Assembly (NCBI GenBank): GCA_965222955.1
Contig: OZ244974.1
Location: forward strand, 2,178,977-2,242,976
Reading direction: 5' to 3'
Source of the DNA: Hyphomicrobiales bacterium
GTDB taxonomy: Bacteria; Pseudomonadota; Alphaproteobacteria; Rhizobiales; CBDCVD01
Length of the DNA stretch: 64,000 bases
This document shows, piece after piece, positions 1,611 to 46,168 of this stretch. The notes beneath the pieces were generated by a model, which had not been told where the DNA came from, ran no database searches, and saw only the letters and a program-made list of their open reading frames with translations. Within the stretch, counting starts at the first letter, position 1; each line of letters begins with the position of its first letter. The translations under genes and the position numbers were made by a program.

Positions 1611-1669
1611 GATGATCCACCGGTATTTTGCTCTGCGCCGGCGATCCACCTGCGATGGCCGAACGGTCC

Positions 1670-1725
1670 CTGGAGCATGTCAGGTCTTAATAGAACTGGT
1701 TCTATTAAGACCTGACATGCTCTGG
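1670..1725. repeat. family A hairpin repeat, copy A1 (short-loop variant)
   Basis: CTGGAGCATGTCAGGTCTTAATAGAACTGGTTCTATTAAGACCTGACATGCTCTGG, with ~23-bp complementary arms. It is followed by ACACGCTAG, a partial extra arm ending in CTAG at 1731..1734. Confidence 0.85.
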
Positions 1726-1730
1726 ACACG

Positions 1731-2183: not shown

Positions 2184-2286
2184 CGTTTAACCGAATTGCC
2201 GGCACGATGCGCCCTGAGGGTTCGCGCGCATGCGCGCTGCGGCAAATGTTGCTTGCCCGTCAGCTTAATCGGGCAATGACGGCAGG

Positions 2287-2955: not shown

Positions 2956-3168
2956 GGAGATTTTCCGGCGATGGGTTGATCGATTGGCCCGGCCGTGGCT
3001 GTGACCTTTCAGCAGGTTGCGGCCATGGTCGCGGCAGAGCCGGTTCGGGCGATCCACCTGCACCCGATGGCATTTTTGAGAGCACCCTATTGCAGGATCA
3101 TATTTGGCACGTGGAACGTGATTCGATTATGGGCAGAAAATCGTAAAGGCTTGTTACCAAGGATGTTT

Positions 3169-3810
3169 TCACTTCCGTTCAAGCGCGCGCCCAGGCAGTG
3201 GACGTAACGCCTGAAGCGGTGCGCCGGCGATCCCCGATACAATCTCTTCATCCCCTTGAGGCCCTTCGTCGAACCCCACATGAATGAGATAGGCCAGGCG
3301 GTTGTTGTCGCGCGGGACCAGCATGATACCGGTGCGCTCATGAACAAGCCGGTCCTGCCCGGCGGCCAAATCCAGCTTTACCTGCGCTAGGTGCGAATAC
3401 CGCACCCTGCCCTGCGCCGTTGTCACAGCGATGCGAAGGGGAAGCCGATGAATACCCGTATCCGCACCATCGCCGCGCTTTAGTTGCATTTCCACACGCA
3501 CTTTAACGCTCAGGGTATCGTCCGTTATCGTACATTGCGGCGCGGCGTGCACAATTGTCACAAGATAAGATTGCTCGCCAGTATCCTTGCCGATGGTACC
3601 CGTGTCATCGCGAACCTTAAGACGAGGGCAATTGATACGGCGAACACCGGTGCTGCCAGTCACCAATGCCCTGGTATCGCTGACACTTTTAGTGCTGGTG
3701 CGTTGGGACGGAGCCAGGCTGGCGCAACCGGCAATCATGAAAAGTGCTGGCACGATAGCCATCCATGCGCACGTTCCGACAAAACGCGGCATGGGGCGGT
3801 TCCGGTACAT
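3169..3810 (-). CDS. hypothetical lipoprotein
   Basis: Signal peptide plus lipobox (..AIVPALFMIAGC ASLAP). I recognise no family. Start is either ATG 3810 or 3792. Confidence 0.55.
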   Translation of the reverse strand: MYRNRPMPRFVGTCAWMAIVPALFMIAGCASLAPSQRTSTKSVSDTRALVTGSTGVRRINCPRLKVRDDTGTIGKDTGEQSYLVTIVHAAPQCTITDDTLSVKVRVEMQLKRGDGADTGIHRLPLRIAVTTAQGRVRYSHLAQVKLDLAAGQDRLVHERTGIMLVPRDNNRLAYLIHVGFDEGPQGDEEIVSGIAGAPLQALRPLPGRALERK

Positions 3811-3924
3811 GTTCCTATTCACCATGTCGGTACCCATTTGCAGTACAGTACGGCACGGCGTTATCGGCCGCAGATGATAGCCGGCCCCTTGCCCATGCCA
3901 CCGTCCAGGGGGTATTCCATGTTC

Positions 3925-4428
3925 TCATGTCATTGCCCTAAGAAGTTGCGCGGCACTGGATACATCCACCTGGGCGGCCTGGTCCTCCACATGACATATC
4001 CTGACAACGCCATCATCAACAAGCATGGCATAGCGTTTTGAGCGAATGCCCATGCCGTGGTCATTCAGATCGACATCCATGCCGATGGCGCGCGCGAACG
4101 CAGCACTGCCGTCGGCCAGAAAGGTGATCCTGCCAGCGGCCTCGCTTGTATGCGCCCAGGCGTTGATGACATGAACATCGTTCACGGCGGTGCATACAAT
4201 TTCATCCACACCTTTTGCGCGAAACGCATCGGCTGTCTCCAGAAATCCGGGAAGATGCGCACGATGGCACGTGGGCGTAAACGCTCCCGGCACGGCAAAC
4301 AGGACAATTTTCCTGGCTGAAAAAATCTCGGACGTGGTCTTTGCTACCGGCCCGTGCGCTGTCATGGTGATAAAGGTGGCACTCGGCAAACGATCACCGA
4401 CGCCAATCGCCTGTTTTGCCTGTGTCAC
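3925..4428 (-). CDS. peroxiredoxin (Prx5-like / AhpC-TSA family)
   Basis: 167 aa. Has FAVPGAFTPTCH (peroxidatic Cys motif), the typical Prx5 length, and VNDVHVINAW. Confidence 0.9.
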   Translation of the reverse strand: MTQAKQAIGVGDRLPSATFITMTAHGPVAKTTSEIFSARKIVLFAVPGAFTPTCHRAHLPGFLETADAFRAKGVDEIVCTAVNDVHVINAWAHTSEAAGRITFLADGSAAFARAIGMDVDLNDHGMGIRSKRYAMLVDDGVVRICHVEDQAAQVDVSSAAQLLRAMT

Positions 4429-4509
4429 GTCTTTAACTTCCTCTACGCAAAACCGTTTGCTACGTCATCGCCGCCGCGACAAAAAGTACCCACAATATCG
4501 CAGCACTAG

Positions 4510-4660
4510 ATGTGTCATTTCAACAGGTTGTTCCCGGGACGGACAAATCTGGCGTGATACCTATTGCGGCCGTCGCCGCGATAGAGCCAGTTCGGGCCAT
4601 TTGTCTGATGATGGCCACCTGCACCCGACAGGTTTGCAAGAACAAACTGCTGAATTGACG
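4510..4660 (+). repeat. family E repeat, full-length copy E2
   Basis: Starts right after CTAG (4506..4509). Left end ATGTGTCATTTCAACAGGTTGTTCCCGG; right end CAAGAACAAACTGCTGAATTGAC (degenerate inverted terminus). The interior holds both internal modules (..GGCCATTTGTCTGATGATGGCC..GCACCCGACAGGTTT). Confidence 0.7.
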
Positions 4661-4706
4661 CAACGGACTAATACCACGCAATTGCGTCCGAGAAAACCCT
4701 CAGAAC

Positions 4707-5681
4707 TCACCGATCAAACGCCGCCAGTTCGACAAGAAACGCGCCTAACGTGGCCGCAACTTCCAATCCACCGCCATCGGTTGCCAGGGTCAGCCGGATG
4801 GATTGCGTGGGATCGAATTGCCCGGGGTTTTCCCTCCAACTGCGATACAATCTGTCCAGAGGAACCGCAAAAACGGCGCGCTTGCCATGGCGCTCGTGCA
4901 ATACGGGAAGCGGCAGATAATGGGGGCTGGGCCATTCAATGAACAAATCCGGCACCACATTCGATACGGGTGTTGTCGCCTCAACGCGCAATACCGGAGC
5001 CGGTGTTTTGACAATCGACCAGCTTAAAGCCAATCGGTCCGATGTTTGCACCGGCACACGCGCACGGAACATTTCCAGACGATGGGCATTGACCGGATCA
5101 AAAGGCAGCACAACCGGAACATCCAGGGAAATCCTGCCATCTACGGGTACACAAATGTCGGCGCAGATTCCAAGTTGCGCCGTCATGCGTAACCGCGTTG
5201 GCGCGTTCCGGTCAATGCGCTCAATATCAACGGGAAAAACCACCGCATCCGTATAGCCAATGGCATGGCCACCGCCACTGCCAAAGCGCCGGGGAACCGG
5301 CCAGTGAACGTGCGCCGCGCTTATGTTTTTGGAGGCGGAAAAATCGAACACCGGCGCAATGCCGCTGTCACCGGGCATACGCCAGTACGTTTTCCACCCT
5401 TTTTTCAAGAGCACGTCAACGCCCACCCGAAGCGTATCGTTGCCAGTCGCCTCGTTTCGCTCCGGCGCTTCTTCAACGGCGATCATTTTGATCACCGCCC
5501 CTTCCACAAGCAATGGCAGACTCTCGATCGCCTGTACAGCGTCGACAGGCAGCACCAGCGCACCGACAAGCCCCCAAACCGCGCGCCGCAATCCGCATCG
5601 GCGCCAATAGCGCTGCCCCTTTTCGTCCCTGTCGCGCCCGCCATTAGCGCACTGCCGCAATATTCCCTGACAGTTTTTCAT
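4707..5681 (-). CDS. DsbD N-terminal-domain-like (DsbC/ScsB-type) thiol-disulfide protein
   Basis: 324-aa ORF with the pattern GWKTYWRMPGDSGIAP.FDF and a later ICADICVP segment, typical of periplasmic DsbD-alpha-like domains. It lies next to a peroxiredoxin. Start uncertain. Confidence 0.55.
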   Translation of the reverse strand: MKNCQGILRQCANGGRDRDEKGQRYWRRCGLRRAVWGLVGALVLPVDAVQAIESLPLLVEGAVIKMIAVEEAPERNEATGNDTLRVGVDVLLKKGWKTYWRMPGDSGIAPVFDFSASKNISAAHVHWPVPRRFGSGGGHAIGYTDAVVFPVDIERIDRNAPTRLRMTAQLGICADICVPVDGRISLDVPVVLPFDPVNAHRLEMFRARVPVQTSDRLALSWSIVKTPAPVLRVEATTPVSNVVPDLFIEWPSPHYLPLPVLHERHGKRAVFAVPLDRLYRSWRENPGQFDPTQSIRLTLATDGGGLEVAATLGAFLVELAAFDR

Positions 5682-5735
5682 AAATGGTTAACCCTCGATT
5701 GAACCCGGTTGTCCCGACTCCGCGACCCGATCCGC

Positions 5736-5830
5736 TGAATGGTGCTGCTGGCCATCCCTGAAGGCAAGGGCGCAAGAGATGTCACTTCCGGTTTGCCTGT
5801 CTCGGGGAACAACCTGCTGAAAGATCACAT
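5736..5830 (-). repeat. family E repeat, half element (copy E3)
   Basis: ..GGTGCTGCTGGCCATCCCTGAAGGCAAGGGCGCAAGAGAT..CCGGTTTGCCTGTCTCGGGGAACAACCTGCTGAAAGATCACAT is the reverse complement of the module seen in E1, E5 and E9. Confidence 0.75.
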
Positions 5831-5917
5831 CCAGTATTTCCATATTAAGGCCTTTTCCCTATTATAGTCTCAAGCACAAGGCAACCGTATACGAACACCA
5901 TAACACGGCAAATCATC

Positions 5918-6517
5918 ATGAGCGATCGCAGCGGTAAATATCTGAATGGCCAGATGCTCGTAGCCATGCCGGGCATGGCGGATATGCGCTTTGCCCGCAG
6001 CGTCATCTTTATATGCGCCCATTCACCCGATGGCGCCATGGGCCTGATTATAAACCAGCCGGCAAAGGATATTGCTATTGAAGATGTCCTGGCGCAAATG
6101 GACCTGGGAGATAAAGACGAGGAGATCCGCCTGCCCCCGGAACGGGCGCGGGATCCTATTACGATTCTGCGGGGCGGTCCTGTTGAGACGAGTCGCGGCT
6201 TTGTGCTACACACACCCGATTTCGGTCTTGCCGACAGTACCCTGGAAATAAACCGCGATTTCAGTCTAAGCGCCACAACGGAAGTATTACGTGCCGTACT
6301 GGGCGGCGCCGGTCCGAAGCAGGCGGTCCTGGCGTTCGGTCATGCGGGCTGGTCTCCTGGCCAACTTGAGCGAGAGATTGTGGATAACGGCTGGCTTTAC
6401 TGTCCGGCGGACAGCGAACTTGTTTTTGGCGCCGATTCCCATACCAAATACGAACGCGCCTTCGAAAAAATCGGCGTCGATCCGGCCGCCCTGTCGCAAA
6501 CCGGCGGCCATGCGTGA
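5918..6517 (+). CDS. YqgE/AlgH family protein (UPF0301)
   Basis: 199 aa. GQMLVAMPGMADMRFARSVIFICAHSPDGAMGLIINQP is the hallmark N-terminus of this family. Confidence 0.85.
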   Translation: MSDRSGKYLNGQMLVAMPGMADMRFARSVIFICAHSPDGAMGLIINQPAKDIAIEDVLAQMDLGDKDEEIRLPPERARDPITILRGGPVETSRGFVLHTPDFGLADSTLEINRDFSLSATTEVLRAVLGGAGPKQAVLAFGHAGWSPGQLEREIVDNGWLYCPADSELVFGADSHTKYERAFEKIGVDPAALSQTGGHA

Positions 6518-6535
6518 TAACCGGAAGCCTGGCGA

Positions 6536-6588
6536 GTTGAGTGTGAAAAGTCCCTCGGCTTCGCCTCGGTCTACTTTTTCCATTCGAC
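6536..6588. repeat. family C hairpin repeat, copy C1
   Basis: GTTGAGTGTGAAAAGTCCCTCGGCTTCGCCTCGGTCTACTTTTTCCATTCGAC. The arms GTTGA.TGTGAAAAG / CTTTTTC.ATTC.AC enclose CCCTCGGCTTCGCCTCGG. It fills the gap between convergent yqgE-like and EAL genes. Confidence 0.8.
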
Positions 6589-9500
6589 TATTCAGCCGCC
6601 TCAATTGCGCTGGCATAGTTGATCAGATACCGCTCCGCCTCATCACACGACATGGGCCGTGCATAGAGAAATCCCTGTGCGTATTCCGCCCCCAGCTTCG
6701 CGATTTCCTGGGCATCCGCCTGAGTCTCGATACCGCCGGCGACCACCTCCATACCAAGATCGTGCGCCAGAGCAACGATTGAGCGCAAAATATGCGAGCG
6801 TACACCGCTGGCGGAATGAATGAAGGTGCGATCGATCTTCAACATATCAAAGGGAAACTGCTGCAAATAACTCAGCGATGAATAGCCTGTGCCGAAGTTA
6901 TCGAGACTTAGGCGAATATCGAGATCGCGCAACCGCGCGATAATATGCATCGCCAGTTCCGGATTTTCGATCATCAGGGATTCGGTGATTTCCAGATTAA
7001 ACGTGTTCGGCCTGATGCCATCGCGCGAGAGGACCGCCTTGATTTCGCGAACAAGGTCCTGGCGCAACAACTGCTTGTTGGAAATATTGACATGCATGGT
7101 CATGGGCTTGTTGAGCGTGTACTTGCGTTGCCAGGCGCCCAACTGCCGGCTGGCGTGACTGAGAACGTAAAACCCCAGATCGACAATCATCTCGGAGCGT
7201 TCCGCAACGGGGATAAACTCCCCTGGCAGGATCATGCCACGGCGCGGATGAGCCCAGCGCGCCAGCGCCTCAAAACCACGTAACGTATTGTCTTTCAAGG
7301 AAATAATCGGTTGAAAATACAACTCGATTTCCTTGCGTTTGAGCGCCTCGCCAAGATCACTCTCGCGCAGCATGGGATTGCCCTGGCGCAACGCCGGACG
7401 AAACGCCTCGATCCGCCCACCGCCAAGGCCGCGCGCATGGTACATCGCCAACTCCGCATCGCCCAGCAACGTCGCCGCTTCCAGGTGCTCGCTCTGCGCA
7501 CCGGGCTGAACAACCCCGATGGAGCACGACAGTTTCAGTTCGTGAACCGAAAACGCGATCGGTTCGGCGACGATATTGCGCACCCGTCTGGTAAACTGCG
7601 CGATGGCCTTGGCATCCGTGTACGATAAAAGCAAAATGCCGAAACAGTCCCCGCTGATACGAGCCAACGTATCCTGCGGCTGCAAAAGCCGCGCCATGCG
7701 CCGCGACAGGGTAAGCAGAATCGCATCCCCCATCGACAGGCCGAACTCCTCGTTTATGGCACGAAAGCGATCCACATTGACAACGAGCAGCGTCGGTCTG
7801 GAACCCTTTCCAGGTTCGAGCCGGGTGAGAATCCGCGAAAGACGGTCCAGAAAGAGTTGCCTGTTCGGCAGTCCGGTCAGATTGTCGTTTACGGCATCAT
7901 GCAGCAGCCTCTCCTGGCTCAGGCGGGCTTCCGTCACATCGGCCAAGGTGCCCACACAGCGCACGACGGCATTCGCGGCACTGATAACCGGCCTGGCGCG
8001 CAGTAAAAATATGAAATAGTGCCCATCACAGGCCCGCAGGCGAAACTCCTGCGCAATATGATCGCGCTGACGGGTGACAATGGCATCGAGCGCCTCACGA
8101 TAGATGTCCCGATCACTGGGATGGAGTTGATCCAGCCACTTGTACGCCGGACCGCACAGGGCCCCATAGGCAAGACCCAGCAAATGCTCCACTTTCGTAC
8201 TGGTAAACAACTGGTCGCGATCGACGTCCCAGTCCCAGATCAGATCGCCGGACCCCATCAGCGCCAGGGCGCGACGCTCACGATCCTTGCTTTCGTCGTG
8301 AAGCATTGAGCTTCCTGTGACCGCGTGCTGAAGCACGGTAAAGCCGATCAGCAGGGCGATCAGCACCAGCCCGCCGACCAGCGCCGGCGACGCTATATCG
8401 TTATTCAACCGCCCCGTCGCAACAAGTGCGGCGCCGCTCAGCCACGCCAACAGCAATATCCAGGTCGGCACCAGCATAATCGCGCGATCAAAGCGGCGCA
8501 CGGCAAAGAACCCGATAACGCCCGTACCCGCAACGGCGATCGCTGCCAGCGCCAAACGTGCCAGACCGGACGCAACCGGCGCATTATAAATCGACAGGGC
8601 AATCAGGCCGCCAAGTGCCACAATACAAAACAGCGCTACATGAAAAAAACCCGCATGCCAGCGATTGAGATGCAGGTAACTGTAAAGAAACAGCCACAGT
8701 GTTGCCGCCAGGAGCGCCTCGGCGCCGGCCCGGTAGATTTGATGCTGCCCGATCGTTGCGCCGAATACTTGTCCCCAGAAACCGAAATCGACGACCAGAT
8801 ACCCCAGTACCGCCCAAGCCAGCGCACTAACGGCAACAAATACCAGCCCGCCGCGAATAATCGTCAGCACGCTTAAAAAAAGCACCAGCAGACCGGCTAT
8901 ACCCAGCACAATGCCCTCATAAAAGGTCAGGCGGTTGACACTGTCCTTATAGGCGTCTGGCTCCCACAGATAGAGTTGCGGCAATCGCGTGCCATTCAGT
9001 TCGGCGACAAACGTGACCACCGCGCCAGGATCAAGGGTCAGGCGGAAGATATCCGCATCGACGCGCGCCAGACGCTCCGGCGCAAACCCCTGGCTGGGGG
9101 TAATCGCCCGAATGCGCGAGGCGCCCAGATCGGTCCACAGCACCCCGGAACCGCTAAGGCGGTAATGGGGCGCCACAAGAAGGCGATCCAGTTGCTCATC
9201 CGAGCTGTTGGACAGCGCGAATACGACCCAATCGCCGCTGCCACCGGCGTCGCGCGGCTGCACTTCGATACGGCGCACAATACCATCCGCGTCCGCGGCT
9301 GCGGTAAGCTGAACGCCGCCCGAGCGGTTGCGATGCCACTCCAGCCCTGGCGCCAGGTCCAGCGCCGGCGCCGCGATGTCCACTTCCATGGGCGTTACCC
9401 CTATGGCGGCACCTGGAGCCTGAAGCATCGCCCAGACGAATGCAACCAGATATACCCATAACGGGCATTGCCCGCCCCTGGCTTGCAAGGGGCGGGACGG

Positions 9501-37188: not shown

Positions 37189-37302
37189 GGCAGGATCGGT
37201 GCGAATTCACGTTTATCGCTTTTCGCCCATACGCTTGTTTTATGATGATGCTGATTGATCTGTTATAATGAATTGTCAGGCGGGGCAAGCCTGTCCCGCC
37301 CA

Positions 37303-37365
37303 GATCAGCATGCGTTTAGCTTTACCGGTTTTGCCAGGGGTAAAGCGAAACGCATAAAGCTGATC
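37303..37365 (-). repeat. family D hairpin repeat, copy D2
   Basis: GATCAGCATGCGTTTAGCTTTACCGGTTTTGCCAGGGGTAAAGCGAAACGCATAAAGCTGATC. Confidence 0.8.
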
Positions 37366-37377
37366 ACCATGAAATTA

Positions 37378-37432
37378 GTTGAATGGGAAAAAGTGGACCG
37401 AGGCGAAGCCGAGGGAGTTTTTCACATTCAAC
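37378..37432. repeat. family C hairpin repeat, copy C3 (inverted core)
   Basis: GTTGAATGGGAAAAAGTGGACCGAGGCGAAGCCGAGGGAGTTTTTCACATTCAAC. Confidence 0.85.
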
Positions 37433-37437
37433 TTTGT

Positions 37438-37467
37438 AAGAACAACCTGTTGAGGTTACACAGATAG
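37438..37467 (-). repeat. family E terminus fragment (E10)
   Basis: AAGAACAACCTGTTGAGGTTACACAGATAG. Confidence 0.55.
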
Positions 37468-37499
37468 CTCCCCAATACGCACATCCCGATATATGGCGC

Positions 37500-38132
37500 T
37501 TACGAATCGGCATGATCATAAATCCAGGGGCGGTGTTGGCGGTCCGCCCTGGTAAAGTCCTCTATCCTTGCCCGGTGGCGAAGGGTAATGTCAATCGCCG
37601 AATAGCCTTTCATGAGCATGTCGCGCTCCGATTCCGACAGGCTAAATGAAATCGTGTTGCCAGCAAAGCGCACGTGGCGATCTTCCAGATTTACAACAAC
37701 GAGATTGTCCTCCGGTTGGCGCGCACACCAGTCGGCGATTTCTCTTAAGGCCCGTTGTGCAAGAGTGGCCGGAACGATCCCGTTGGCGACGCAGTTATTG
37801 CGAAAAATGGTCGCAAACCCTTGCGCCAGAATGGCGCGAAAGCCGTAGTCCCTCAGCGCCCAGACCGCATGCTCGCGCGACGAGCCGCAGCCGGTATTTT
37901 GCCCTGCAAGCAGGATTGTCGCCCGCTTGTAAGGAGGCTGGTTCAATATAAAATCGGGATTTTCCCGGCGCGGACCGTCTCGATAGCGGCGGTTTGCAAA
38001 CAGGGCGGCCGCCAGGCCTCTCTTTGAGATACGCTTCATTTCGTGAGACGGGATAATCGTATCCGTATTGATGTTGTGCTCCAGCATCGGTGCGGCGATG
38101 CCTTTGTGGGATCTGATGCCCTTTGCGCTCAT
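37500..38132 (-). CDS. leuD: 3-isopropylmalate dehydratase small subunit-like protein (LeuD family; possibly a catabolic paralogue)
   Basis: 210 aa from ATG 38132. NTDTIIP, NPDFILN, GCGSSREHAVWALRDYGF. ATGA overlap with the large-subunit stop. The upstream part of the track ORF is not conserved. Confidence 0.8.
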   Translation of the reverse strand: MSAKGIRSHKGIAAPMLEHNINTDTIIPSHEMKRISKRGLAAALFANRRYRDGPRRENPDFILNQPPYKRATILLAGQNTGCGSSREHAVWALRDYGFRAILAQGFATIFRNNCVANGIVPATLAQRALREIADWCARQPEDNLVVVNLEDRHVRFAGNTISFSLSESERDMLMKGYSAIDITLRHRARIEDFTRADRQHRPWIYDHADS

Positions 38133-39517
38133 AGGGTCACCTTGCGCACATCGCTGATTGCGCCGTTTACTGCGCTCCAGGCGACCGTTGCGGGGCTGGC
38201 GATATGGGTGCGAACCCCGGGGCCCTGACGATGTTCGAAATTGCGGTTCGTCGAGGAGAGCACCCGCGACTGCGGCGCAAACGTTTCGCCGCCGGCATGA
38301 AAACACATGGCGCAACCGGCTTCGTGCCACTCGAACCCGGCATCTGTAAACACCCGATCAAGGCCCTCGGTACGCGCTTGTGCGCCGACGGCCGTTGAGC
38401 CGGGCACGCAAATGGCACGGACACGATCGGGGACTTTCCGGCCGCGGACAATCTGTGCCGCAAGGCGCAAGTCGCTGATCCTGCTGTTTGTGCACGAGCC
38501 GATAAACGCACCGTTAATCGGCTGCCCTTGCAGAACCGTACGCGGACGAAGGCCCATATATTCATACGCACGTGCGGTATCGGCGCTGTGAACCGGCAAA
38601 GCCTCGTCAATGGCGACCGCCTGTTCCGGGCTCGTCCCCCAGCTTACGATCGGCGCGAGACCGGATACGTCGAGAGCCCGTTCGCCATCGAACCTGGCGT
38701 CCGCATCGCTGTAAAGCGACTGCCATGCTTTTCGCGCCGCGGGCCAGTCGCGCGCCGAAGGGGCAAACGCCCTGCCACAGATATAGTCGAACACCTTTTC
38801 ATCAGGGGCAACAAGCGTTGTGAATGCGGCAAATTCGACACCCATGTTGCAAAGCGTCAGACGCTCTTCCACCTCCATTTCATCGACAACAGGACCGCTG
38901 AATTCCACAACCTGATCGCGGCCAAATCCGGCCCCCCATAAACGGATCAGATGGATGACAATATCCTTGGCGGTAATCCAGGCGGATTTTGCGCCGCTAA
39001 GGCGCACCCGGGTTTGGCGATGCCGGGGCAGGCGCAACGTGCGAGTCACCATGGCGTGTTCGCAATCGCTTGAGCCGATCCCCCAGGCCAGCGCGCCCAG
39101 CCCGCCAAGGGTGCAGGTATGGCTGTCCGGACAGACCATGGTGATGCCGGGCAAGGCGATGCCCTGCTCCGGCGCGATAACATGCACAATACCCTGCCGC
39201 GGATCATCGACATCGAACAGCCTGACACCCATTTTCCGGGAAAGCCGCCGCATTTCGGTGACGAATATTTCGCCGCCCGGCATACGCACCAGATTCGGGC
39301 GCCGCGCTTGCGTATCGATGATATGATCAATCGTGGCAAAAACCATCTCCGGCGCCATGGGGGTGCGATTATCGTCGTGCATGCTGGACAGGGCGATTGA
39401 ACCGGTTCGCTCGTGCAGCATGATCCGGTCGATGTAGATCAGCGATGTGCCGTCCTCAAAGCGGTGCACCTCGTGGGGGGCGCGGATCTTGTCGTAAAGT
39501 GTGCGCGGCGAACTCAT
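38129..39517 (-). CDS. leuC: 3-isopropylmalate dehydratase large subunit-like protein (aconitase family; possibly a catabolic paralogue)
   Basis: 462 aa, collinear with LeuC: TLYDKI, YIDRIMLHE, QGIVHVIAPEQG, DSHTCTLG, GSCTNSRISDL, GCAMC, STNRNFEHRQG. Deviates from E. coli LeuC as I remember it (HERTGS versus HEVTSP; CPDSHT versus CGDSHT). Confidence 0.85.
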   Translation of the reverse strand: MSSPRTLYDKIRAPHEVHRFEDGTSLIYIDRIMLHERTGSIALSSMHDDNRTPMAPEMVFATIDHIIDTQARRPNLVRMPGGEIFVTEMRRLSRKMGVRLFDVDDPRQGIVHVIAPEQGIALPGITMVCPDSHTCTLGGLGALAWGIGSSDCEHAMVTRTLRLPRHRQTRVRLSGAKSAWITAKDIVIHLIRLWGAGFGRDQVVEFSGPVVDEMEVEERLTLCNMGVEFAAFTTLVAPDEKVFDYICGRAFAPSARDWPAARKAWQSLYSDADARFDGERALDVSGLAPIVSWGTSPEQAVAIDEALPVHSADTARAYEYMGLRPRTVLQGQPINGAFIGSCTNSRISDLRLAAQIVRGRKVPDRVRAICVPGSTAVGAQARTEGLDRVFTDAGFEWHEAGCAMCFHAGGETFAPQSRVLSSTNRNFEHRQGPGVRTHIASPATVAWSAVNGAISDVRKVTL

Positions 39518-40710
39518 CCCACCAGACGCCTGTCAAAAAGATCGCGAATCGCGTCTTGCGAATAGCCCAGTTGCGCCAGAATGGACCGGGTATCGGCGCC
39601 GGGTTCGGGCGGATTGCGGCGCAAACCTGCGCGTGCACCATCCACCTCCAGGGGAAGGGCCGGAAGCCTGACCACCTTCGCGGTGTCCGGCAATGTCACA
39701 TCATGGAGCCCACCGTTCGCCAGATGCGGATCATCCAGCAGGTCGTCAGGGGTTTGTATCGGCGCAAAGGGCAGGCCGGCCTCTTCCAGCAGGCGCGCAA
39801 GCGCCTGCGATGAGAACGTCTTAAAGAGCGCGCGAAGGCGCGGGACTATCGCGTCACGGCGGGCGACCCGGGCGGCGTTCGTCGCATAGGCAGGATCGTC
39901 GCGCCAATCGTCCAGTTCAAAGCGCTCGCAGAACGCTTTCCACTGGCCATCGCTGACCACGGCGACAAAAACCCTTCGATCGGTGGTATCAAAGACATCA
40001 TAGACCGCCCATGCGGAAACGCGTTCGGGCATGGGCGCTGCGGGCGTACCGGTTACCGCGTGCTGGGCGATGTGCTGGCCGACCAGAAATGCCGTCGTCT
40101 CGAACAGCGATGAGGTGATATGATGTCCGGCTGCCTCGCCTGCGCCGTTCGCTTTTTTGAACAGCGCAGCCAGAACGCCGATGGCGCCGGCCATCGCGCC
40201 GGTGATGTCGATCACCGAGGCGCCGGCGCGCAAGGGTCTGCCGCTGGGGCCTGTCATATAGGCGAGCCCGCCCATCATCTGCGCCACTTCATCGAGCGCG
40301 GTGCGTTCCTGGTAAGGCCCGGAAAGGAAACCCTTGCAGGATTGATAGATCAGATCAGGGTTAATCTTGTGAAGATCATCGACCCCAAGTCCGAGTTTAT
40401 CGAGTGCCCCGGCGCGAAAATTCTCGCACACGACGTCCGCCGACTTGACCAGGGCATAGGCGATTTCCCGACCCGCATCGCTTTTCAGATCGACGCAAAT
40501 GCTTTTTTTGTTGCGATTGAACATGGGGAAATATCCCGCGCCCGAGCCGCTTAAACGTCGGGTCTTGTCGCCGCCCAACGGCTCGATCTTGATGACTTCA
40601 GCGCCAAGATCGGCCAGCATCATGCCCAGGGCCGGTCCCATGACCATGTGAGAAAACTCGATCACCCGTATGCCGTTCAGAAAATCCATCGTCAATAGTC
40701 CACTCGCCAT
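39514..40710 (-). CDS. CaiB/BaiF family (class III) CoA-transferase
   Basis: 398 aa. GIRVIEFSHMVMGPALGMMLADLGAEVIKIEP N-terminus, ENFRAGALDKLG, interlocked-dimer-type length. ATGA overlap with the leuC-like start. Confidence 0.85.
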   Translation of the reverse strand: MASGLLTMDFLNGIRVIEFSHMVMGPALGMMLADLGAEVIKIEPLGGDKTRRLSGSGAGYFPMFNRNKKSICVDLKSDAGREIAYALVKSADVVCENFRAGALDKLGLGVDDLHKINPDLIYQSCKGFLSGPYQERTALDEVAQMMGGLAYMTGPSGRPLRAGASVIDITGAMAGAIGVLAALFKKANGAGEAAGHHITSSLFETTAFLVGQHIAQHAVTGTPAAPMPERVSAWAVYDVFDTTDRRVFVAVVSDGQWKAFCERFELDDWRDDPAYATNAARVARRDAIVPRLRALFKTFSSQALARLLEEAGLPFAPIQTPDDLLDDPHLANGGLHDVTLPDTAKVVRLPALPLEVDGARAGLRRNPPEPGADTRSILAQLGYSQDAIRDLFDRRLVG

Positions 40711-40814
40711 GGCTCGCTTTATGGTACGTTAACTTTATGATACGCCAATCTTATGATTTGCCAGTTTTATGATATATAAGCATATCAATATGTCAAATAT
40801 GAAGTGAATAATCC

Positions 40815-41777
40815 ATGATAACTGTCAGCGAAGTCGGCCCCAGAGACGGGCTGCAAAATCTTGATGTCGTTCTGGATCTGGAAGTCAAAAAGAACTGGAT
40901 CGCGGCGGAGGCGGCAGCCGGTGTACGGGAAATCGAAGTTGGCTCGTTCGTCGATTACCGGGCGTTGCCGCAAATGGCGGACACGTTTGAACTCGTCAGA
41001 TTTGCACGAACCCTCCCCAACCTGTGCGTGGCGGTCATGGTTCCGAACCTGCGCGGCGCGCAGGCAGCAATCGAGGCGGGGGCGCATAAACTGTCGATCC
41101 CCGTATCGGCCAGTGAGACCCATTCGCTGCGCAACGTGAACCGTACCCATAGCCAGATGCTTGATGAAGTGCGCGCCATCCGCTCCCTTATATCGCAGAT
41201 GGATGTTGGGGAGCGGCCTTATTTCGAGGCCGGGATTGCCACTGCGTTCGGATGCACCATTGAGGGACATGTGCCGCAACATACGATCGTCCGCCTTGCC
41301 GGGGAACTCCTGGCCGCCGGCGCCGAGGAGGTGGGTCTGTCGGATACGACCGGTTACGCGGATCCGAAAATGATCCGCGATCGTATCAACGCCGTCTACC
41401 GCACTGTTGGCGAGCGCTTTTTGAACGGGGTCCATCTGCACAATACCCGCGGCCTTGGTCTTGCCAATGTTGTGGCGGCCCTTGATTGCGGCATTACCAC
41501 GATTGATGCTTCACTGGCGGGGCTTGGCGGCTGTCCCCAGGCACCTGGCGCGAGCGGCAATATCGTCACCGAAGATCTGGTTTTCATGCTGAATGCGATG
41601 GGCTACGATACCGGTATCGACGTGGACCGCCTGCTTGATGTTCGCGAAATGCTGCACAGCGCGTTGAGCGATGCGCCGGTTTTCGGCTTTGTTGCCAAGG
41701 CGGGATTACCGATAGATTATGCGCTACGTTGCCTGGGCGGCGGATGGCGCAGACCGCGAGTCTCCTATGGCCGATGA
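40815..41777 (+). CDS. hydroxymethylglutaryl-CoA lyase family (DRE-TIM metallolyase) protein
   Basis: VSEVGPRDGLQN, VREIEVGSFV, HLHNTRGLGLANVVAAL, ASLAGLGGCPQAPGASGN. Confidence 0.85.
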   Translation: MITVSEVGPRDGLQNLDVVLDLEVKKNWIAAEAAAGVREIEVGSFVDYRALPQMADTFELVRFARTLPNLCVAVMVPNLRGAQAAIEAGAHKLSIPVSASETHSLRNVNRTHSQMLDEVRAIRSLISQMDVGERPYFEAGIATAFGCTIEGHVPQHTIVRLAGELLAAGAEEVGLSDTTGYADPKMIRDRINAVYRTVGERFLNGVHLHNTRGLGLANVVAALDCGITTIDASLAGLGGCPQAPGASGNIVTEDLVFMLNAMGYDTGIDVDRLLDVREMLHSALSDAPVFGFVAKAGLPIDYALRCLGGGWRRPRVSYGR

Positions 41778-42591
41778 TCCATGGACAGAATCTTCCTGTA
41801 TTGATCCCGACAGCCCGACGCCCCTGTATCATCAGTTGTATTTGCTGTATCGGCACAGGATTCTCTCGGGGGTTCTTGACTATGGCGCGCTTCTTCCCGG
41901 CGAGGAGAGGCTGGCGGCGCAGTTCGGCGTCTCGCGCATTACCGCACAACGCAGCCTGAACGAATTGGCCGAAGACGGCCTGGTCGAGCGAAATCGCGGC
42001 CGCGGAACGCGCGTCTCCTACAGGCGCGCCAGTAGAATACGGGACAACGGTTTTTCCGGCCTGGTCGAAAATCTGGTGGCGATCATCGGATCCACGACCG
42101 TCGATGTGCTGTCGTTTGACTATATGCCGGCCAGCCCCGCGGTTGCGGCGCTTTTACAACTTACGCCCGGGGCCATGGTTCAGCGCGCCGAGCGCAGAAG
42201 GTGCAGGGACGATGTCCCCTTTAGTTTCATGATCACCCATTTGCCCGAAGACATCGGCAGGAGCTTTGATCAGGGCGATCTGTCGCAAAAGCCCATCCTG
42301 CAGTTGATCGAGGAATCGGGGTGCGAAATATGCGCGGCAACGCAAACCATCTCGGCGACCGCCGCCTCGCCGGCCGTGGCCAAAGTGCTGAATATCGCCA
42401 TTGGCGCAGCGTTGTTGAAGATCGACAGAACCGTATTCGATGATACCGAACGCCCGGTACAGCATATTGAGGTGTTGTATCGGCCGGAAATGTACCAGTT
42501 TGAGATGAGTCTGCGGCGGGTGGCCGAAGATGGACGAAAAACGTGGTTCTCAGTGGAGCCGGACAAGCAGAACCTATCTGAAACCGATTGA
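41767..42591 (+). CDS. GntR family transcriptional regulator (HutC/UTRA-type)
   Basis: Start at ATG 41767 (MADDPW..). wHTH segment PLYHQLY..LPGEERLAAQFGVSRITAQRSLNELAEDGLVERNRGRGTRV, then a C-terminal UTRA-like effector domain. Confidence 0.85.
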   Translation: MADDPWTESSCIDPDSPTPLYHQLYLLYRHRILSGVLDYGALLPGEERLAAQFGVSRITAQRSLNELAEDGLVERNRGRGTRVSYRRASRIRDNGFSGLVENLVAIIGSTTVDVLSFDYMPASPAVAALLQLTPGAMVQRAERRRCRDDVPFSFMITHLPEDIGRSFDQGDLSQKPILQLIEESGCEICAATQTISATAASPAVAKVLNIAIGAALLKIDRTVFDDTERPVQHIEVLYRPEMYQFEMSLRRVAEDGRKTWFSVEPDKQNLSETD

Positions 42592-43467
42592 CTCCAGATA
42601 GGCACGGTTTTTGCGGGCATCGCCTATGGGGTCCGGGTTCAGGGCCGGATCGCAGTCCTGCTCAACGGTACACCAGCCCTTATACCCCGTCTTGAGCAGG
42701 ATCTGGCGCACCGCCGGGAAATCCACCTCGCCCTCTCCCAGTCTACAGAATATTCCCTCGCCGCACGCCTGGTAAAAACCGGTGCGGTTGGCAATCACAT
42801 GCCGTTTGACTGCGGCGCAGATATCCTTGAAATGCACATAGGCGATACGTCCCATATGCCGTTGCATGAATGCCACGGGATCGTACCCGGCATAGGCGTG
42901 GTGGCCCGTATCGAAACAGATCTTCAGCAAGTCCTCATCCACTTCATCCAGCAGGCGCTCCAGTTCAGGTTCGAAATCCATAAAACCCGCCGCATGGGCG
43001 TGAATACACGCCCTCAGGCCGTATTCCGTGGTGGCGATTCTGGCGCTTTGCGCAATTCTGTCGCGGTACGCCGCCCATTCCGCCGGGTCCATTTGCACAG
43101 CCTCGTGGGGCCGTCCCGCGGTGGGGGCGCGGCGCGCGGAGATCGAATCGATCAGCACAAGATATTGCGCCCCATGGGCGCGAAGCGCCGCCGCGGTCCG
43201 GTGCGTGGCATCAAGCACGTCCTCGTGGGCGCGCGGGTCGTGAAAGGCGCGAAAGACCACGCCCGCGATCAATGTCAGATCGTACTCGGCCAATGCCTCC
43301 GCCAGGCGGACGGGGTCTTCGGGCATAAAGCCGACGGGTCCCAGTTCGATCCCTGAATAGCCGGCAGCGGCGCATTCCCGCAGCACCGATTGCCACTGGG
43401 GATTGCGCGGATCGTCGGCGAATTCAACGCCCCATGAACAGGGCGCATTACCAATTCTGATCGTCAT
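42574..43467 (-). CDS. sugar phosphate isomerase/epimerase family TIM-barrel protein (IolE-like)
   Basis: 297 aa. N-terminal IGNAPCSWGVEFADD resembles the IolE-type G.AP..W..DD start. Xylose-isomerase-like TIM pattern. It lies in an operon with the aldolase, iolB and iolC. Confidence 0.65.
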   Translation of the reverse strand: MTIRIGNAPCSWGVEFADDPRNPQWQSVLRECAAAGYSGIELGPVGFMPEDPVRLAEALAEYDLTLIAGVVFRAFHDPRAHEDVLDATHRTAAALRAHGAQYLVLIDSISARRAPTAGRPHEAVQMDPAEWAAYRDRIAQSARIATTEYGLRACIHAHAAGFMDFEPELERLLDEVDEDLLKICFDTGHHAYAGYDPVAFMQRHMGRIAYVHFKDICAAVKRHVIANRTGFYQACGEGIFCRLGEGEVDFPAVRQILLKTGYKGWCTVEQDCDPALNPDPIGDARKNRAYLESIGFR

Positions 43468-44338
43468 GGGATGTTGTTTCCTGTTCTGCGTGGCCGGGCG
43501 CCGTATCCTCCTTCGCCTTTAGGGCGCGAAGTACCCGACGGGTGGCATCAACCAGCGGGCCATGGGTAGATTTAAGGATTTCAAGCCGGTCAAAGCGTTT
43601 CGGATCGTCGTTTAGCGTCGCGCGCAACGCCTTTCCAAAGACCATGCGCAGCTCGGTTCCGATGTTGAATTTGCAGATGTTCGAAGCGCGCGCCAGCAGG
43701 GTGCGCTGCGCCACGGGCACGCCGGAGCCGCCGTGAATGACCAGCGGCACACTGGTCAACGCCTCGATTGCGCGGATGCGGGGCACGTCCAGCCCTGTGC
43801 GCTTGCGCTGTTGCAAATGGATGTTGCCAACGGATATTGCCATGGCGTCCACGCCCGTATCACGCGCGAATTTCGCCGCCTCTTGCGGGTCGGTACCCGT
43901 TGAGTCATCGCCGTCTGAATAGCCGACGAAACCGATCTCGCCTTCGCAGGAAACCCCCGCCTTGTGGGCCATCTGTACGATCGCGCCGGTATGATCGATG
44001 TTTTGCTGCAAGGGCGCGCGCGCGCCATCGAACATCACCGATGTGAAGCCGCAATCGATGGCGATGCGGCATTCCTCGGCGGTGTATCCATGATCCAGAT
44101 GGGCGACGACGGCGACGCTTGCGTTTTCTGCCAGATGGCGAAACATGGCGGCCAGAACCGGCAGGGGCGTGTGTTCCCGGCAAGCGGGGCCGGCCTGCAG
44201 GATGAGCGGTGCCTGTTCCATTTCGGCCGCCGTCACAAAGGCGCGCATATCCTCCCAGCCCTGGGCGACGAGCCCGGCGACCGCGTAGCCCTGAAGGCGT
44301 GCCGGCTGCAAAACCTGCGAGAGCGTTGCCAGGCTCAT
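43448..44338 (-). CDS. class II (metal-dependent) fructose/tagatose-bisphosphate aldolase family protein (IolJ-like)
   Basis: VAHLDHG, CEGEIG, NIHLQ, VIHGGSG. It is adjacent to iolB and iolC. Confidence 0.8.
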   Translation of the reverse strand: MSLATLSQVLQPARLQGYAVAGLVAQGWEDMRAFVTAAEMEQAPLILQAGPACREHTPLPVLAAMFRHLAENASVAVVAHLDHGYTAEECRIAIDCGFTSVMFDGARAPLQQNIDHTGAIVQMAHKAGVSCEGEIGFVGYSDGDDSTGTDPQEAAKFARDTGVDAMAISVGNIHLQQRKRTGLDVPRIRAIEALTSVPLVIHGGSGVPVAQRTLLARASNICKFNIGTELRMVFGKALRATLNDDPKRFDRLEILKSTHGPLVDATRRVLRALKAKEDTAPGHAEQETTSHDDQNW

Positions 44339-45177
44339 TTGAACTTCGCCACCATATCCATAATGCCTGGAATGGTCTTTAGCTGGCTGGCGTGGGTTGG
44401 CTGGAAATACTGTATCAGGCCGCGCTGGCTTTGGCCGCCGAGGATGGTGAAATAATACATCTCATAGCCTGGCAGAACGGCGCAGGGATGATACCCCTTG
44501 TCGATGAGAACCGTCGAGCCGTCCATGACATGATAGGCCTCGCCCGGCTCGTTATCGTTACGCTGCAACATTTGCAGCCCCGAGCCGTAAGGGGGCCGGA
44601 AGCGAAAGTTATAGGTTTCATCGTGGCGGGTTTCATCGGGCGGGCGATCGGTATCGTGCTTGTGCGAGGGAAATCCCGACCAGCCGCCGCTGCCGACCGT
44701 ATACAATTCACTGACCAGCAGCCGGCCGACCTTTTCGTGCTGGTTCGCGCCCAGGATATGCTTGATTTTACGGTGAGTTTTCGTGTCATCGGATCCGTAT
44801 TGAACAACATCGATGGCATCGCCCCGCACATCGAACGGCTCCAGCACCCGATCGTATCTGGCGCCGGCGATAAACGTCTCGGTGGTATCGCTGGCGCATG
44901 TAATGCGTACCCTGGCACCAACGGGAACGTAGACGCCCTCGGGCTCGCCGTCCCAGACATCGAGGCCACGTGTACCCAATGCCGGGTATCGGGCGCCCTC
45001 CACATCCACATCGACGGTGCCGGTGGCGGGCACGACGCAACTCTCGTATCGCCCCACCTGGTACGTAAACACCTCGCCCCTCCTTAGCTTGACGATGTTA
45101 AAGTAGTTCAACGGAACCCGCTCGTGATCGACATCGACGATGGGCTTGTTCAGATTGTCGTGCGGGGCAATATGCAT
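44335..45177 (-). CDS. iolB: 5-deoxy-glucuronate isomerase
   Basis: 280 aa from ATG 45177. GGWSGFPSHKHDTD..ETRHDETYNFRF.P..G.G.Q cupin core typical of IolB. ATGA-type overlap with the aldolase start. Confidence 0.8.
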   Translation of the reverse strand: MHIAPHDNLNKPIVDVDHERVPLNYFNIVKLRRGEVFTYQVGRYESCVVPATGTVDVDVEGARYPALGTRGLDVWDGEPEGVYVPVGARVRITCASDTTETFIAGARYDRVLEPFDVRGDAIDVVQYGSDDTKTHRKIKHILGANQHEKVGRLLVSELYTVGSGGWSGFPSHKHDTDRPPDETRHDETYNFRFRPPYGSGLQMLQRNDNEPGEAYHVMDGSTVLIDKGYHPCAVLPGYEMYYFTILGGQSQRGLIQYFQPTHASQLKTIPGIMDMVAKFK

Positions 45178-45187
45178 AAGGAGCTCT

Positions 45188-46168
45188 CTATACTTCTGTC
45201 GGGCCCGGATGGGAGCGCAAAAAGGCATCCAGGCCGGCGGTATCGGGCATGGCGGGGGCGCAGCCCGGTTGCGATACGACAATCGATGCACATGCCGAGC
45301 CGCGCAGAACCGCTTCCCTGAGATCGCGCCCCTGCGCCAGGGACGTCAGGAAACCGGCCATGAAGCTGTCCCCCGCGCCGGTCGGCTTGAGCGCCTTGAC
45401 CGGGAAAATTCCGGTGCGCAGTTCCTTGCGGTCAGCCAGGGTGATGGCGCCCTCGGGTCCCATTTTATAGACAACAATCGCCACACCCTTGCGAGCCAGT
45501 TCGCGCGCCTTGTCCAGTCCCCTGGCGATGTCGCCGGCCATAAAGCCGAATTCCTCGTCGTTGCCAACGATCACATCGGACATGGCGCCGGCGCGTGAGA
45601 GCACCGCTTCGGCCACCTGCGGCGATGGCCAACTGTACGGACGATAGTCGACGTCGAATATGACGGGAACGCCGGCGGCCCGCGCCCTCTCAAAGGCGCG
45701 AAACGAGGCGGAGCGCGATGGCTCGGCTGCGAAAACCGTACCCGCGGCGATCACGGCGCCGTAGCGGCCGAAGTCCACCGCCTCGATATCCCCGGCGGTA
45801 ATCTGAAAATCCGCAGCATTGTTGCGATAGATAACGCTTTGGTGGTCCTGTATACGGGTCTCGTACACGGCGAGCGACGTCCGCTCCTCGCCAGCGATGC
45901 GCCGTACATGGGTCCGGTCGACGCCGTAATGATCCAGTTGCGCCTCGCAGTACCAGCCGATGGCATCATCTGAAACCGCCGTTAGCAGAGCCGCTGTGCA
46001 GTCCAGTTTCGACAGCCCGACGGCGATATTGGCGCCGCTTCCTCCCATCGATACCCTCATGGATGCGGCCTCGCAGGTGCGCGTTCCCGGCGGCTCCGGT
46101 GAGAGGTCCATGCCGACCCGGCCGATGATAAGAAAACGGCGCCGTGCGATCCCCTTCAGAACCATCAC
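45188..46168 (-). CDS. iolC: PfkB-family sugar kinase, 5-dehydro-2-deoxygluconokinase-like
   Basis: 326 aa. GGSGANIAVGL, C-terminal DPTGAGDSFMAGF. iol context. It lacks the C-terminal extension found in fused IolC forms. Confidence 0.75.
   Translation of the reverse strand: MMVLKGIARRRFLIIGRVGMDLSPEPPGTRTCEAASMRVSMGGSGANIAVGLSKLDCTAALLTAVSDDAIGWYCEAQLDHYGVDRTHVRRIAGEERTSLAVYETRIQDHQSVIYRNNAADFQITAGDIEAVDFGRYGAVIAAGTVFAAEPSRSASFRAFERARAAGVPVIFDVDYRPYSWPSPQVAEAVLSRAGAMSDVIVGNDEEFGFMAGDIARGLDKARELARKGVAIVVYKMGPEGAITLADRKELRTGIFPVKALKPTGAGDSFMAGFLTSLAQGRDLREAVLRGSACASIVVSQPGCAPAMPDTAGLDAFLRSHPGPTEV

Follow-up and report, generated by a model that had tools for sequence, protein, structure and literature searches.

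What is the role of a second pair of leucine-type hydro-lyase genes when these are found beside genes for a coenzyme A (CoA) transferase, a lyase and a regulator? This question is raised by a five-gene unit at positions 37500 to 42591 of a 64,000-nt stretch of DNA from a Hyphomicrobiales bacterium, hereafter the window (contig OZ244974.1, assembly GCA_965222955.1, positions 2,178,977-2,242,976 of the forward strand). Our preferred answer, to which we give a probability of about 60%, is that the unit encodes the lower half of a pathway for cyclic amides or imides, in which a cis-unsaturated dicarboxylate would be hydrated, activated with CoA and cleaved to an acyl-CoA and a 2-oxoacid. Genes were assigned from the list of open reading frames and from Pfam matches, and family membership was tested against the equivalog and subfamily cut-offs of NCBIfam. 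The genome searched was the 3.4-Mb genome that contains the window (G000), and comparisons within the genus were made with the sister species (G439), its sole other genome.

Three of the genes form an operon on the minus strand. The operon begins with a class III (CaiB/BaiF) CoA-transferase of 398 aa (39514-40710; PF02515 CoA_transf_3, 365 bits), continues with a LeuC-like large subunit of 462 aa, a predicted [4Fe-4S] hydro-lyase (38129-39517; PF00330 Aconitase, 447 bits), and ends with a LeuD-like small subunit of 210 aa (37500-38132; PF00694 Aconitase_C, 99.6 bits). A preliminary description of this DNA had noted ATGA overlaps at both junctions, and both were read in the sequence, as gggATGAgtt between the CoA-transferase and LeuC-like genes (39514-39517) and as cctATGAgcg between the LeuC-like stop and the LeuD-like start (38129-38132). 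Across a 104-bp divergent control region (40711-40814), containing a predicted palindromic operator, a promoter and half-site repeats, the plus strand carries a gene for an acyl-CoA lyase of the 3-hydroxy-3-methylglutaryl-CoA (HMG-CoA) lyase family (DRE-TIM; 320 aa; 40815-41777; PF00682 HMGL-like, 157.6 bits), followed by a GntR/HutC-type regulator (41767, or 41719, to 42591; PF00392, 65 bits; PF07702 UTRA, 113 bits). The overlap claimed earlier for these two genes is also present, with the lyase stop codon TGA (41775-41777) lying downstream of the in-frame regulator ATG at 41767 to give an 11-nt overlap (41767-41777), while the alternative start at 41719 would give a still larger one. By this reading of the sequence the regulator is translationally coupled to the lyase gene. 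The Pfam matches covered the full model length in all five products.

We compared the LeuC-like and LeuD-like proteins with the leucine enzyme of the same genome, since the preliminary description had set the unit apart from leucine biosynthesis and had suggested searching for a second leuCD pair. Such a pair was found, with a canonical leuC followed by leuD (262 bits) at about 1.686-1.688 Mb (G000:C1). The canonical LeuC scored 792 bits on the leuC equivalog model TIGR00170, while the window LeuC, 46% identical to it, scored 478.9 bits and fell under the cut-off of 560.25. A maximum-likelihood tree, which had also been suggested, placed all 14 homologues having CoA-transferase and HMGL-like genes in their loci together with the window LeuC (100/99 support), in a clade separate from canonical LeuC and from the other paralogue groups; one further row of this clade (L014) was without the CoA-transferase and HMGL linkage. 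The HERTGS and CPDSHT motifs, recognized earlier as departures from LeuC, were confirmed in the window protein, and HERTG[SA] and CPDSHTCT were carried by it and by all 119 of its closest database relatives, versus HEVTSPQ and CGDSHTST in the canonical LeuC of this genome. Similarly, the LeuD-like clade has the loop IIPS(R/H)EMK, versus IIPKQYLK in the genome's canonical LeuD, and the window pair is therefore without the canonical substrate-region motifs (HEVTSPQ and CGDSHT in LeuC, the KQ[YF]L loop in LeuD). An automatic screen for LeuC columns splitting the clade from canonical sequences returned none, with a "canonical" set that mixed several paralogue groups, and the distinction made here comes from motif inspection and the tree. 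Because canonical leuCD genes are present elsewhere, the window LeuC falls under the equivalog cut-off and its clade is distinct, the window pair is by all these sequence measures a paralogue and not the leucine-biosynthesis enzyme.

The residues expected of a working enzyme were retained. The window LeuC has the cluster-ligand cysteines C342 (GSCTNSR), C402 and C405 (GCAMC), the window LeuD has the catalytic GSSRE motif (as GCGSSREHA), and the two subunit genes adjoin, as found in heterodimeric [4Fe-4S] hydro-lyases of the aconitase superfamily. With these cysteines and the GSSRE motif intact, the pair is predicted to be a working hydro-lyase with an altered substrate pocket. Two clade-specific arginines, one in HE-R-TGS of LeuC and one in the SREMK loop of LeuD, are absent from canonical LeuC and LeuD, and could either close the isopropyl pocket or bind another carboxylate. 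LeuCD-type enzymes hydrate maleate and citraconate.

The CoA-transferase and the lyase were each assigned to a family. PF02515 spans positions 1-366 of its 366 in the CoA-transferase, placing it in class III, and the Asp in its GASVIDITG segment corresponds in the alignment to the catalytic Asp region of YfdE and SUGCT. This protein scored far under the cut-off of every named NCBIfam equivalog, with the best being succinate-glutarate CoA-transferase (221 versus 750 bits); NCBIfam contains no model for succinyl-CoA:(R)-citramalate CoA-transferase (EC 2.8.3.20). The lyase aligned with human HMGCL and the bacterial HMG-CoA lyases at the R-D of EVGPRDGLQN, the Glu, the HxH, the Cys of GGCP and the Asn, and thus carries the residues of the acyl-CoA lyase branch of the DRE-TIM family. 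It is the sole lyase-type HMGL protein in the genome, and no lyase-type HMGL protein was found in the genome of the sister species. The features of a true HMG-CoA lyase, namely leucine-catabolic linkage and housekeeping conservation, were not observed, although methylcrotonyl-CoA carboxylase genes were not searched for; the constant neighbours of the lyase gene are the LeuCD-like and CoA-transferase genes. The weak likeness of the transferase to the succinate-glutarate and succinate-HMG transferases prompted us to consider 3-methylglutaconate/HMG as substrate. This candidate was rejected on the grounds of aconitase-type chemistry, which needs a carboxylate on the hydroxyl-bearing carbon, an alpha-carboxylate that HMG does not have.

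To see how constant this association is, as the preliminary description had also proposed, we assembled a set of 18 loci in which the LeuC-like gene belongs to the clade. In 16 of the 18 the genes for hydratase, CoA-transferase and lyase were kept together, with orthologues of the CoA-transferase at 56-72% and of the lyase at 54-81% identity, while the partner genes were absent from loci whose LeuC is 53% identical to the window's or less. The hosts of the module are marine, soil and sludge bacteria, including Thalassococcus, Halovulum, Hoeflea, Pseudaestuariivita, Porticoccaceae, Woeseiaceae, Hyphomonadaceae and a Chromatiales symbiont, and plasmid-borne versions were observed in Sphingomonas sp. 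JE1 (pJE1) and in Acidiphilium multivorum JZ-6, an activated-sludge isolate. One genome (G228) has two copies of the core module on two replicons (L080 and L081), with PuuE-like and isochorismatase genes accompanying only one of them. An outlier was observed in a Halieaceae metagenome-assembled genome (L072, 1-10383), where a clade LeuC-like gene has no detectable adjoining LeuD gene and is divergent from an operon containing an Amidohydro_2 protein, a distant CoA-transferase (34% identity), a cupin, a distant HMGL-like lyase (41%) and HyuA/HyuB.

In the relatives, the core module is adjoined by three non-homologous types of ring- or ester-opening hydrolase, namely HyuB/HyuA, PuuE-like proteins and a PcaD-like lactonase, and three extensions of the module recur. 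In the first extension (A), genes for HyuB, HyuA and an isochorismatase-family amidase lie in the same operon with 4-nt overlaps, with HyuB/HyuA observed in L005, L011 and L071; HyuA and HyuB belong to the family of ATP-dependent hydantoinases, oxoprolinases and caprolactamases. The second extension (B) contains the same amidase orthogroup together with a relative of maleate isomerase (a distant one, at 47 bits to the solved maleate isomerases), flavin monooxygenases, a dehydrogenase pair and a tripartite ATP-independent periplasmic (TRAP) transporter. The third (C), which is the form on both plasmids, has two PuuE-allantoinase-like proteins (104 bits to PuuE) and an isochorismatase-family protein, with the PuuE-like pair found in L073, L074, L075 and L081. 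A PcaD-like lactonase was observed beside the core in L007, and in the Porticoccaceae version an enol-lactonase-like hydrolase gene overlaps the LeuC start. Overall, an isochorismatase-family amidase was present in 9 of the 18 loci and a maleate-isomerase-like gene in four. All of these accessory hydrolases and amidases scored far under any curated cut-off, with the best NCBIfam matches of HyuA and HyuB being the caprolactamase subunits (480 and 278 bits against cut-offs of 1000). Plasmid pJE1 (L074) also contains, at 1359-6684, a second LeuCD pair that groups with canonical LeuC and lies between two PuuE-like genes and a gene of the isocitrate-lyase/phosphoenolpyruvate (PEP)-mutase family. 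This pair looks like a CoA-independent variant of hydratase plus lyase, in the style of the dimethylmaleate route, located beside the CoA-dependent one.

The regulator has the architecture of the HutC subfamily, with an N-terminal GntR winged helix and a C-terminal UTRA effector domain, and a palindrome is present at the promoter. The minus-strand promoter TTGACA-16-TATCAT (40796 to 40769) matches 11 of 12 consensus positions, and the predicted operator, TGATATGCTTATATATCA at 40770-40787, covers the promoter spacer and the -10 element. Between this palindrome and the CoA-transferase start (40718-40775) there are four direct TTATG(A/G)T repeats at a spacing of about 16 bp, which cover a weaker promoter-like site on the plus strand that would serve the lyase gene; the repeats may be extra half-sites for the regulator. 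Seven loci belonging to various genera have the palindrome in the equivalent position, among them L005, L009, L010, L011, L012 and L070 in their corresponding intergenic regions, and a related palindrome lies ahead of the accessory operons in class B loci. Two perfect copies of the palindrome pattern were also seen upstream in L080 (at 5845 and 7010). In alphaproteobacterial loci, orthologues of the regulator (47-67% identity) adjoin the lyase gene or close the operon. We consider the regulator most likely to be a repressor.

The unit's neighbours on the regulator side are iolE-, iolJ-, iolB- and iolC-like genes (42574-46168), which run convergently towards the regulator gene and overlap it by 18 nt (42574-42591). 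Assignment of the regulator to these iol genes was considered and rejected, as the sister species has its iol genes in a different location, with no DNA match to this regulator gene, and as orthologues of the regulator travel with the lyase gene. The iol layout itself differs in the sister genome, with the iolE-like gene at about 1148.6 kb (+) and the other three at 1153-1155 kb (-).

We searched the whole genome for further copies of the operator. A stricter initial pattern missed the second genome site. The full 18-mer with up to three mismatches gave exactly two sites in the 3.4-Mb genome, against 1 match for the backwards control pattern. A relaxed palindrome gave 26 sites, against 6 for its control, and is too loose to be used alone. 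The second site, TGACATGTGTATATATCA at C1:2333113-2333130, overlaps a TTGACA-17-TAAACT promoter directed at an operon for an ATP-binding cassette (ABC) importer and HyuBA, with further half-sites just upstream.

This second locus (G000:C1:2333113-2342732; L077:2114-11732) lies outside the window, about 117 kb from the unit. A whole-genome tblastn search with the accessory proteins located its HyuB, HyuA and isochorismatase-family genes at G000:C1:2338413-2342704, and the encoded proteins are 62%, 55% and 67% identical, respectively, to their counterparts in the Thalassococcus operon. Ahead of hyuBA are five genes for a Liv-type ABC importer, comprising a Peripla_BP_6 binding protein, two permeases and two ATPases. 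The predicted operator and promoter are about 690 bp upstream of the first gene of the locus, and a repeat element of about 370 bp with CTAG-flanked inverted ends is inserted between them and that gene. The linkage to amidohydrolases and an amidase, which in relatives takes the form of a single operon, is represented here by an apparently common operator-like site and by joint absence from the sister genome. From these observations a two-locus regulon under the HutC-type regulator of the window is predicted. The genome has another HyuA/HyuB pair at G000:C1:60816-63940, which is more distant from the Thalassococcus proteins (32-35% identity), with a weak Amdase-family match nearby at about 58.7-59.1 kb.

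The distribution of the genes was sparse. Among 400 genomes drawn from the whole class, 3 had a clade LeuC, and of 400 drawn from the same order none had one. Its nearest relatives are Paracoccaceae-like sequences with 71-77% identity. None of the five genes had a match in the sister genome, where the flanks of the unit lie apart, the trmJ side at about 770 kb and the iol side at about 1150 kb, and the ABC/hyuBA/amidase locus was also absent. By this absence and the separated flanks, the regulator belongs with the five-gene unit rather than with the iol genes next to it. Small repeat elements of this genome border both loci. At the unit these form an array on the trmJ side (37255-37470), read in the sequence as a boundary and not as a functional part, one part of which (37302-37368) has counterparts among the dispersed repeats of the sister genome. 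The sparse clade, a sister species with neither locus and the repeat borders together indicate that both loci were horizontally acquired.

In the pathway that we propose, the Liv-type ABC importer of the second locus would take up a cyclic amide, imide or ureide, HyuB/HyuA would open the ring at the expense of ATP, and the isochorismatase-family amidase would remove nitrogen to free an unsaturated diacid of the maleate type. The LeuCD-like [4Fe-4S] hydro-lyase would then add water to maleate, citraconate or a substituted maleate to give an (R)-2-hydroxy acid, which the class III transferase would convert to its CoA thioester, with succinyl-CoA or acetyl-CoA as the probable donor. The HMG-CoA-lyase-family enzyme would finally cleave this thioester in a retro-aldol/Claisen reaction to an acyl-CoA (acetyl-CoA if C3 is unsubstituted) and a 2-oxoacid. 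With the simplest substrates, the 2-oxoacid would be glyoxylate from maleate and pyruvate from citraconate. Expression would be controlled by binding of the regulator to the palindrome that overlaps the operon promoter. We infer every enzymatic step, the direction of the pathway, the repression and the substrate from family membership and gene context, and by these measures maleate, citraconate and more substituted maleates are equally compatible candidates. Each step has a precedent, namely maleimide hydrolase (EC 3.5.2.16), the LeuCD-like hydratases of maleate and citraconate, the transferase and lyase of Chloroflexus, and the cleavage of D-malate and D-citramalate reported for Pseudomonas in 1971. 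The strongest indirect evidence for the chemistry is that ring opening followed by removal of the amide nitrogen naturally gives a cis (Z) diacid, which is the type of substrate used by LeuCD-like enzymes. Moreover, because relatives carry the trio in one operon with genes for ring-opening amidohydrolases and an amidase, and because it apparently has an operator in common with such genes here, the unsaturated acid is probably an internal intermediate of a pathway for a nitrogen heterocycle or amide and not a free growth substrate. The preliminary description had proposed hydration, CoA activation and cleavage of citraconate or a related branched unsaturated dicarboxylate under GntR control. 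The trio is a conserved unit and the conserved operator at the promoter speaks for GntR control. The chemistry is plausible, with citraconate as one candidate substrate among several, and the acid probably arises within the cell.

More tentatively, and at clearly less than even odds, the two loci together may represent a new route, sparse and widespread, for a natural nitrogen heterocycle, either an imide of the maleimide or citraconimide type, such as is formed in tetrapyrrole photo-oxidation, or a cyclic ureide. Such a route would start with ring opening driven by ATP and pass through deamidation, hydration by the Fe-S enzyme and CoA transfer to an aldol cleavage.

Several observations weigh against the proposed lower pathway. 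The five-gene unit encodes no dicarboxylate transporter. The sequencing runs listed for this stretch of DNA are genome runs of a single study, with no RNA run among them. The lyase narrowly passes the HMG-CoA lyase subfamily model NF004283 (259 versus a cut-off of 246). The link to the second locus is drawn from comparison with a single sister genome and from a single operator-like site, which is separated from the first gene by about 690 bp that include a repeat element. By sequence score, the linked amidase resembles triuret, biuret and ureidoacrylate hydrolases (84-44 bits) more than maleamate amidohydrolase NicF (29 bits), and a cyclic ureide would not obviously give a maleate-type acid. 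The LeuC arginine and the LeuD SREMK loop could mean a smaller pocket or, alternatively, a substrate with an extra anionic group, and enzymes of the aconitase family are able to isomerise their substrates rather than to add water in a net hydration.

These points leave room for other explanations. A self-contained pathway for free citraconate would use the same enzyme logic, passing from (R)-citramalate through (R)-citramalyl-CoA to acetyl-CoA and pyruvate, with external citraconate or citramalate as the effector of the GntR regulator. The HMGL family includes the (R)-citramalyl-CoA lyase of Chloroflexus, which is paired with a class III transferase; a 3-methyl group is found in the substrates of HMG-CoA lyase and likewise in citramalyl-CoA; and the unit stands alone in the window, with no adjoining amidase. 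We nevertheless regard this as unlikely, given that the unit is without a transporter, that relatives have ring-opening hydrolases and amidases in one operon with the core, which here apparently has an operator in common with such genes, and that maleate and other substituted maleates fit equally well. Less probable again is that the same chemistry acts on a bulkier or tricarboxylic cis-acid, such as a tetrapyrrole-derived dialkyl- or carboxyalkyl-maleate or an aconitate- or homoaconitate-like acid, with a propionyl- or glutaryl-CoA-type acyl-CoA and pyruvate or 2-oxoglutarate as products. The clade-specific arginines of HERTGS and SREMK, not found in canonical LeuC and LeuD, would suit such a substrate, as would the marine, soil and sludge hosts with their imidase- or hydantoinase-like linked hydrolases, and the second LeuCD pair of pJE1 has an isocitrate-lyase-family lyase as its neighbour, in the manner of the dimethylmaleate route. 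This proposal is, however, drawn from residue changes alone, the HMGL-family lyases characterised to date release acetyl-CoA, and the surroundings showed no genes related to tetrapyrroles.

The lyase and transferase reactions are reversible, and the unit could in principle run in the anabolic direction, with the lyase condensing acetyl-CoA with a 2-oxoacid, the transferase freeing a 2-alkylmalate and the LeuCD-like pair isomerising it. The 2-oxoacid would thereby be elongated without a synthase, for instance in a citramalate route to isoleucine. We give this little credence, as the unit has no LeuB-like dehydrogenase and its linkage to an importer, an amidase and a HutC-type regulator is typical of catabolism. 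Moreover, a unit found neither in the sister species nor in any of the 400 genomes sampled from its order is not a core biosynthetic function. Least credible of all, in our estimate, is that the existing annotation is correct and that the genes encode a second 3-isopropylmalate dehydratase, a true HMG-CoA lyase of leucine or ketone-body catabolism and an unrelated CoA-transferase. Some model scores do agree with it, with the LeuD-like protein passing the LeuD cut-offs, the LeuC-like protein passing the subfamily model NF009116 (610 versus 531) and the lyase passing NF004283 as given above. Against these stand the canonical leuCD elsewhere, the equivalog score, tree and motifs of the window LeuC, the tight linkage of the three functions across phylogenetically distant hosts, and the missing alpha-carboxylate of HMG.

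Several known systems share parts of the proposed pathway. The (R)-citramalate branch of Chloroflexus aurantiacus, as outlined in a review, pairs a class III transferase (EC 2.8.3.20) with an HMGL-family (R)-citramalyl-CoA lyase (EC 4.1.3.46). It resembles the window unit, by enzyme family only, in the action of these two enzymes on an (R)-2-hydroxy dicarboxylate and in the predicted products, an acyl-CoA and a 2-oxoacid. The Chloroflexus branch differs in that it is not known to include a LeuCD-type hydratase, amidohydrolases or a GntR regulator, and in its role in carbon-fixation-related metabolism and not in nitrogen-ring catabolism. The hydration step is matched, by description, by maleate hydratase/citraconase (EC 4.2.1.31/4.2.1.35; HbzIJ of Pseudomonas alcaligenes), which has two LeuCD-like subunits and acts on cis-unsaturated diacids. 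In the alkyl-gentisate pathway (Hopper, Chapman and Dagley 1971), CoA activation is reportedly likewise followed by an aldol-type cleavage to glyoxylate or pyruvate, but there the diacid comes from cleavage of the gentisate ring, whereas the genes linked here are amidohydrolases and an importer. The Pseudomonas papers on itaconate and methylsuccinate describe different enzymes, with no growth on (R)-citramalate or citraconate.

Other likenesses concern the nitrogen-containing part of the route. In cyclic-imide catabolism (maleimide hydrolase, half-amidase and maleate hydratase; Blastobacter sp. A17p-4), a ring-opening hydrolase followed by an amidase gives a maleate-type acid, and in the maleamate pathway of nicotinate and nicotine (NicF amidase, NicE maleate isomerase) the enzymes recall the isochorismatase-family amidase and maleate-isomerase-like genes that recur by the core module. 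However, ring opening in the present case would be by the ATP-dependent HyuAB or by PuuE-like proteins, in place of a dihydropyrimidinase-like imidase, and the amidase is only distantly related to NicF (the 29 bits above). The fate of the diacid also differs from both routes, being hydration, CoA transfer and lyase cleavage instead of isomerisation to fumarate or the D-malic enzyme. The creatinine/N-methylhydantoin pathway similarly combines ATP-dependent ring opening by the HyuA/HyuB family with an isochorismatase-family amidase, there N-carbamoylsarcosine amidase, and caprolactamase CapAB provides the best NCBIfam matches of HyuA and HyuB, though these lie far under the cut-offs; both pathways end in an amino acid without LeuCD, CoA-transferase or lyase steps. 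In the lower nicotinate fermentation pathway of Eubacterium barkeri, too, a nitrogen heterocycle gives rise to a substituted maleate, which the LeuCD-like dimethylmaleate hydratase DmdAB hydrates before a C-C bond is split to yield a 2-oxoacid. There, 2,3-dimethylmalate is cleaved independently of CoA by an isocitrate-lyase-family enzyme, a variant that seems to be represented by the second LeuCD pair on pJE1 and is absent from the window.

In a full-text literature search, neither this gene set nor a cluster for bacterial citraconate catabolism was met with in any paper, and no assignment of genes to the CoA-dependent steps of the alkyl-gentisate pathway was found. Compared with the systems above, the features that appear new are the split two-locus arrangement with an apparently common operator, the pair of sister species available for comparison and the plasmid-borne versions.

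The annotation of these genes as leucine biosynthesis, HMG-CoA lyase and generic CoA-transferase would thus misdescribe a conserved catabolic module of marine Alpha- and Gammaproteobacteria and of plasmids. CoA-dependent cleavage of D-malate and D-citramalate was reportedly observed in Pseudomonas by Hopper, Chapman and Dagley in 1971, and if our reading is true the module would supply genes for these orphan activities. It would also add a lower pathway to the degradation of cyclic imides, lactams or ureides, and would offer a clean test system, in which a strain with both loci can be set against a sister with neither, and in which one local regulator faces two predicted operators. Should the more tentative proposal of a natural nitrogen heterocycle as the substrate also be true, the two loci would define a new HutC-type regulon.

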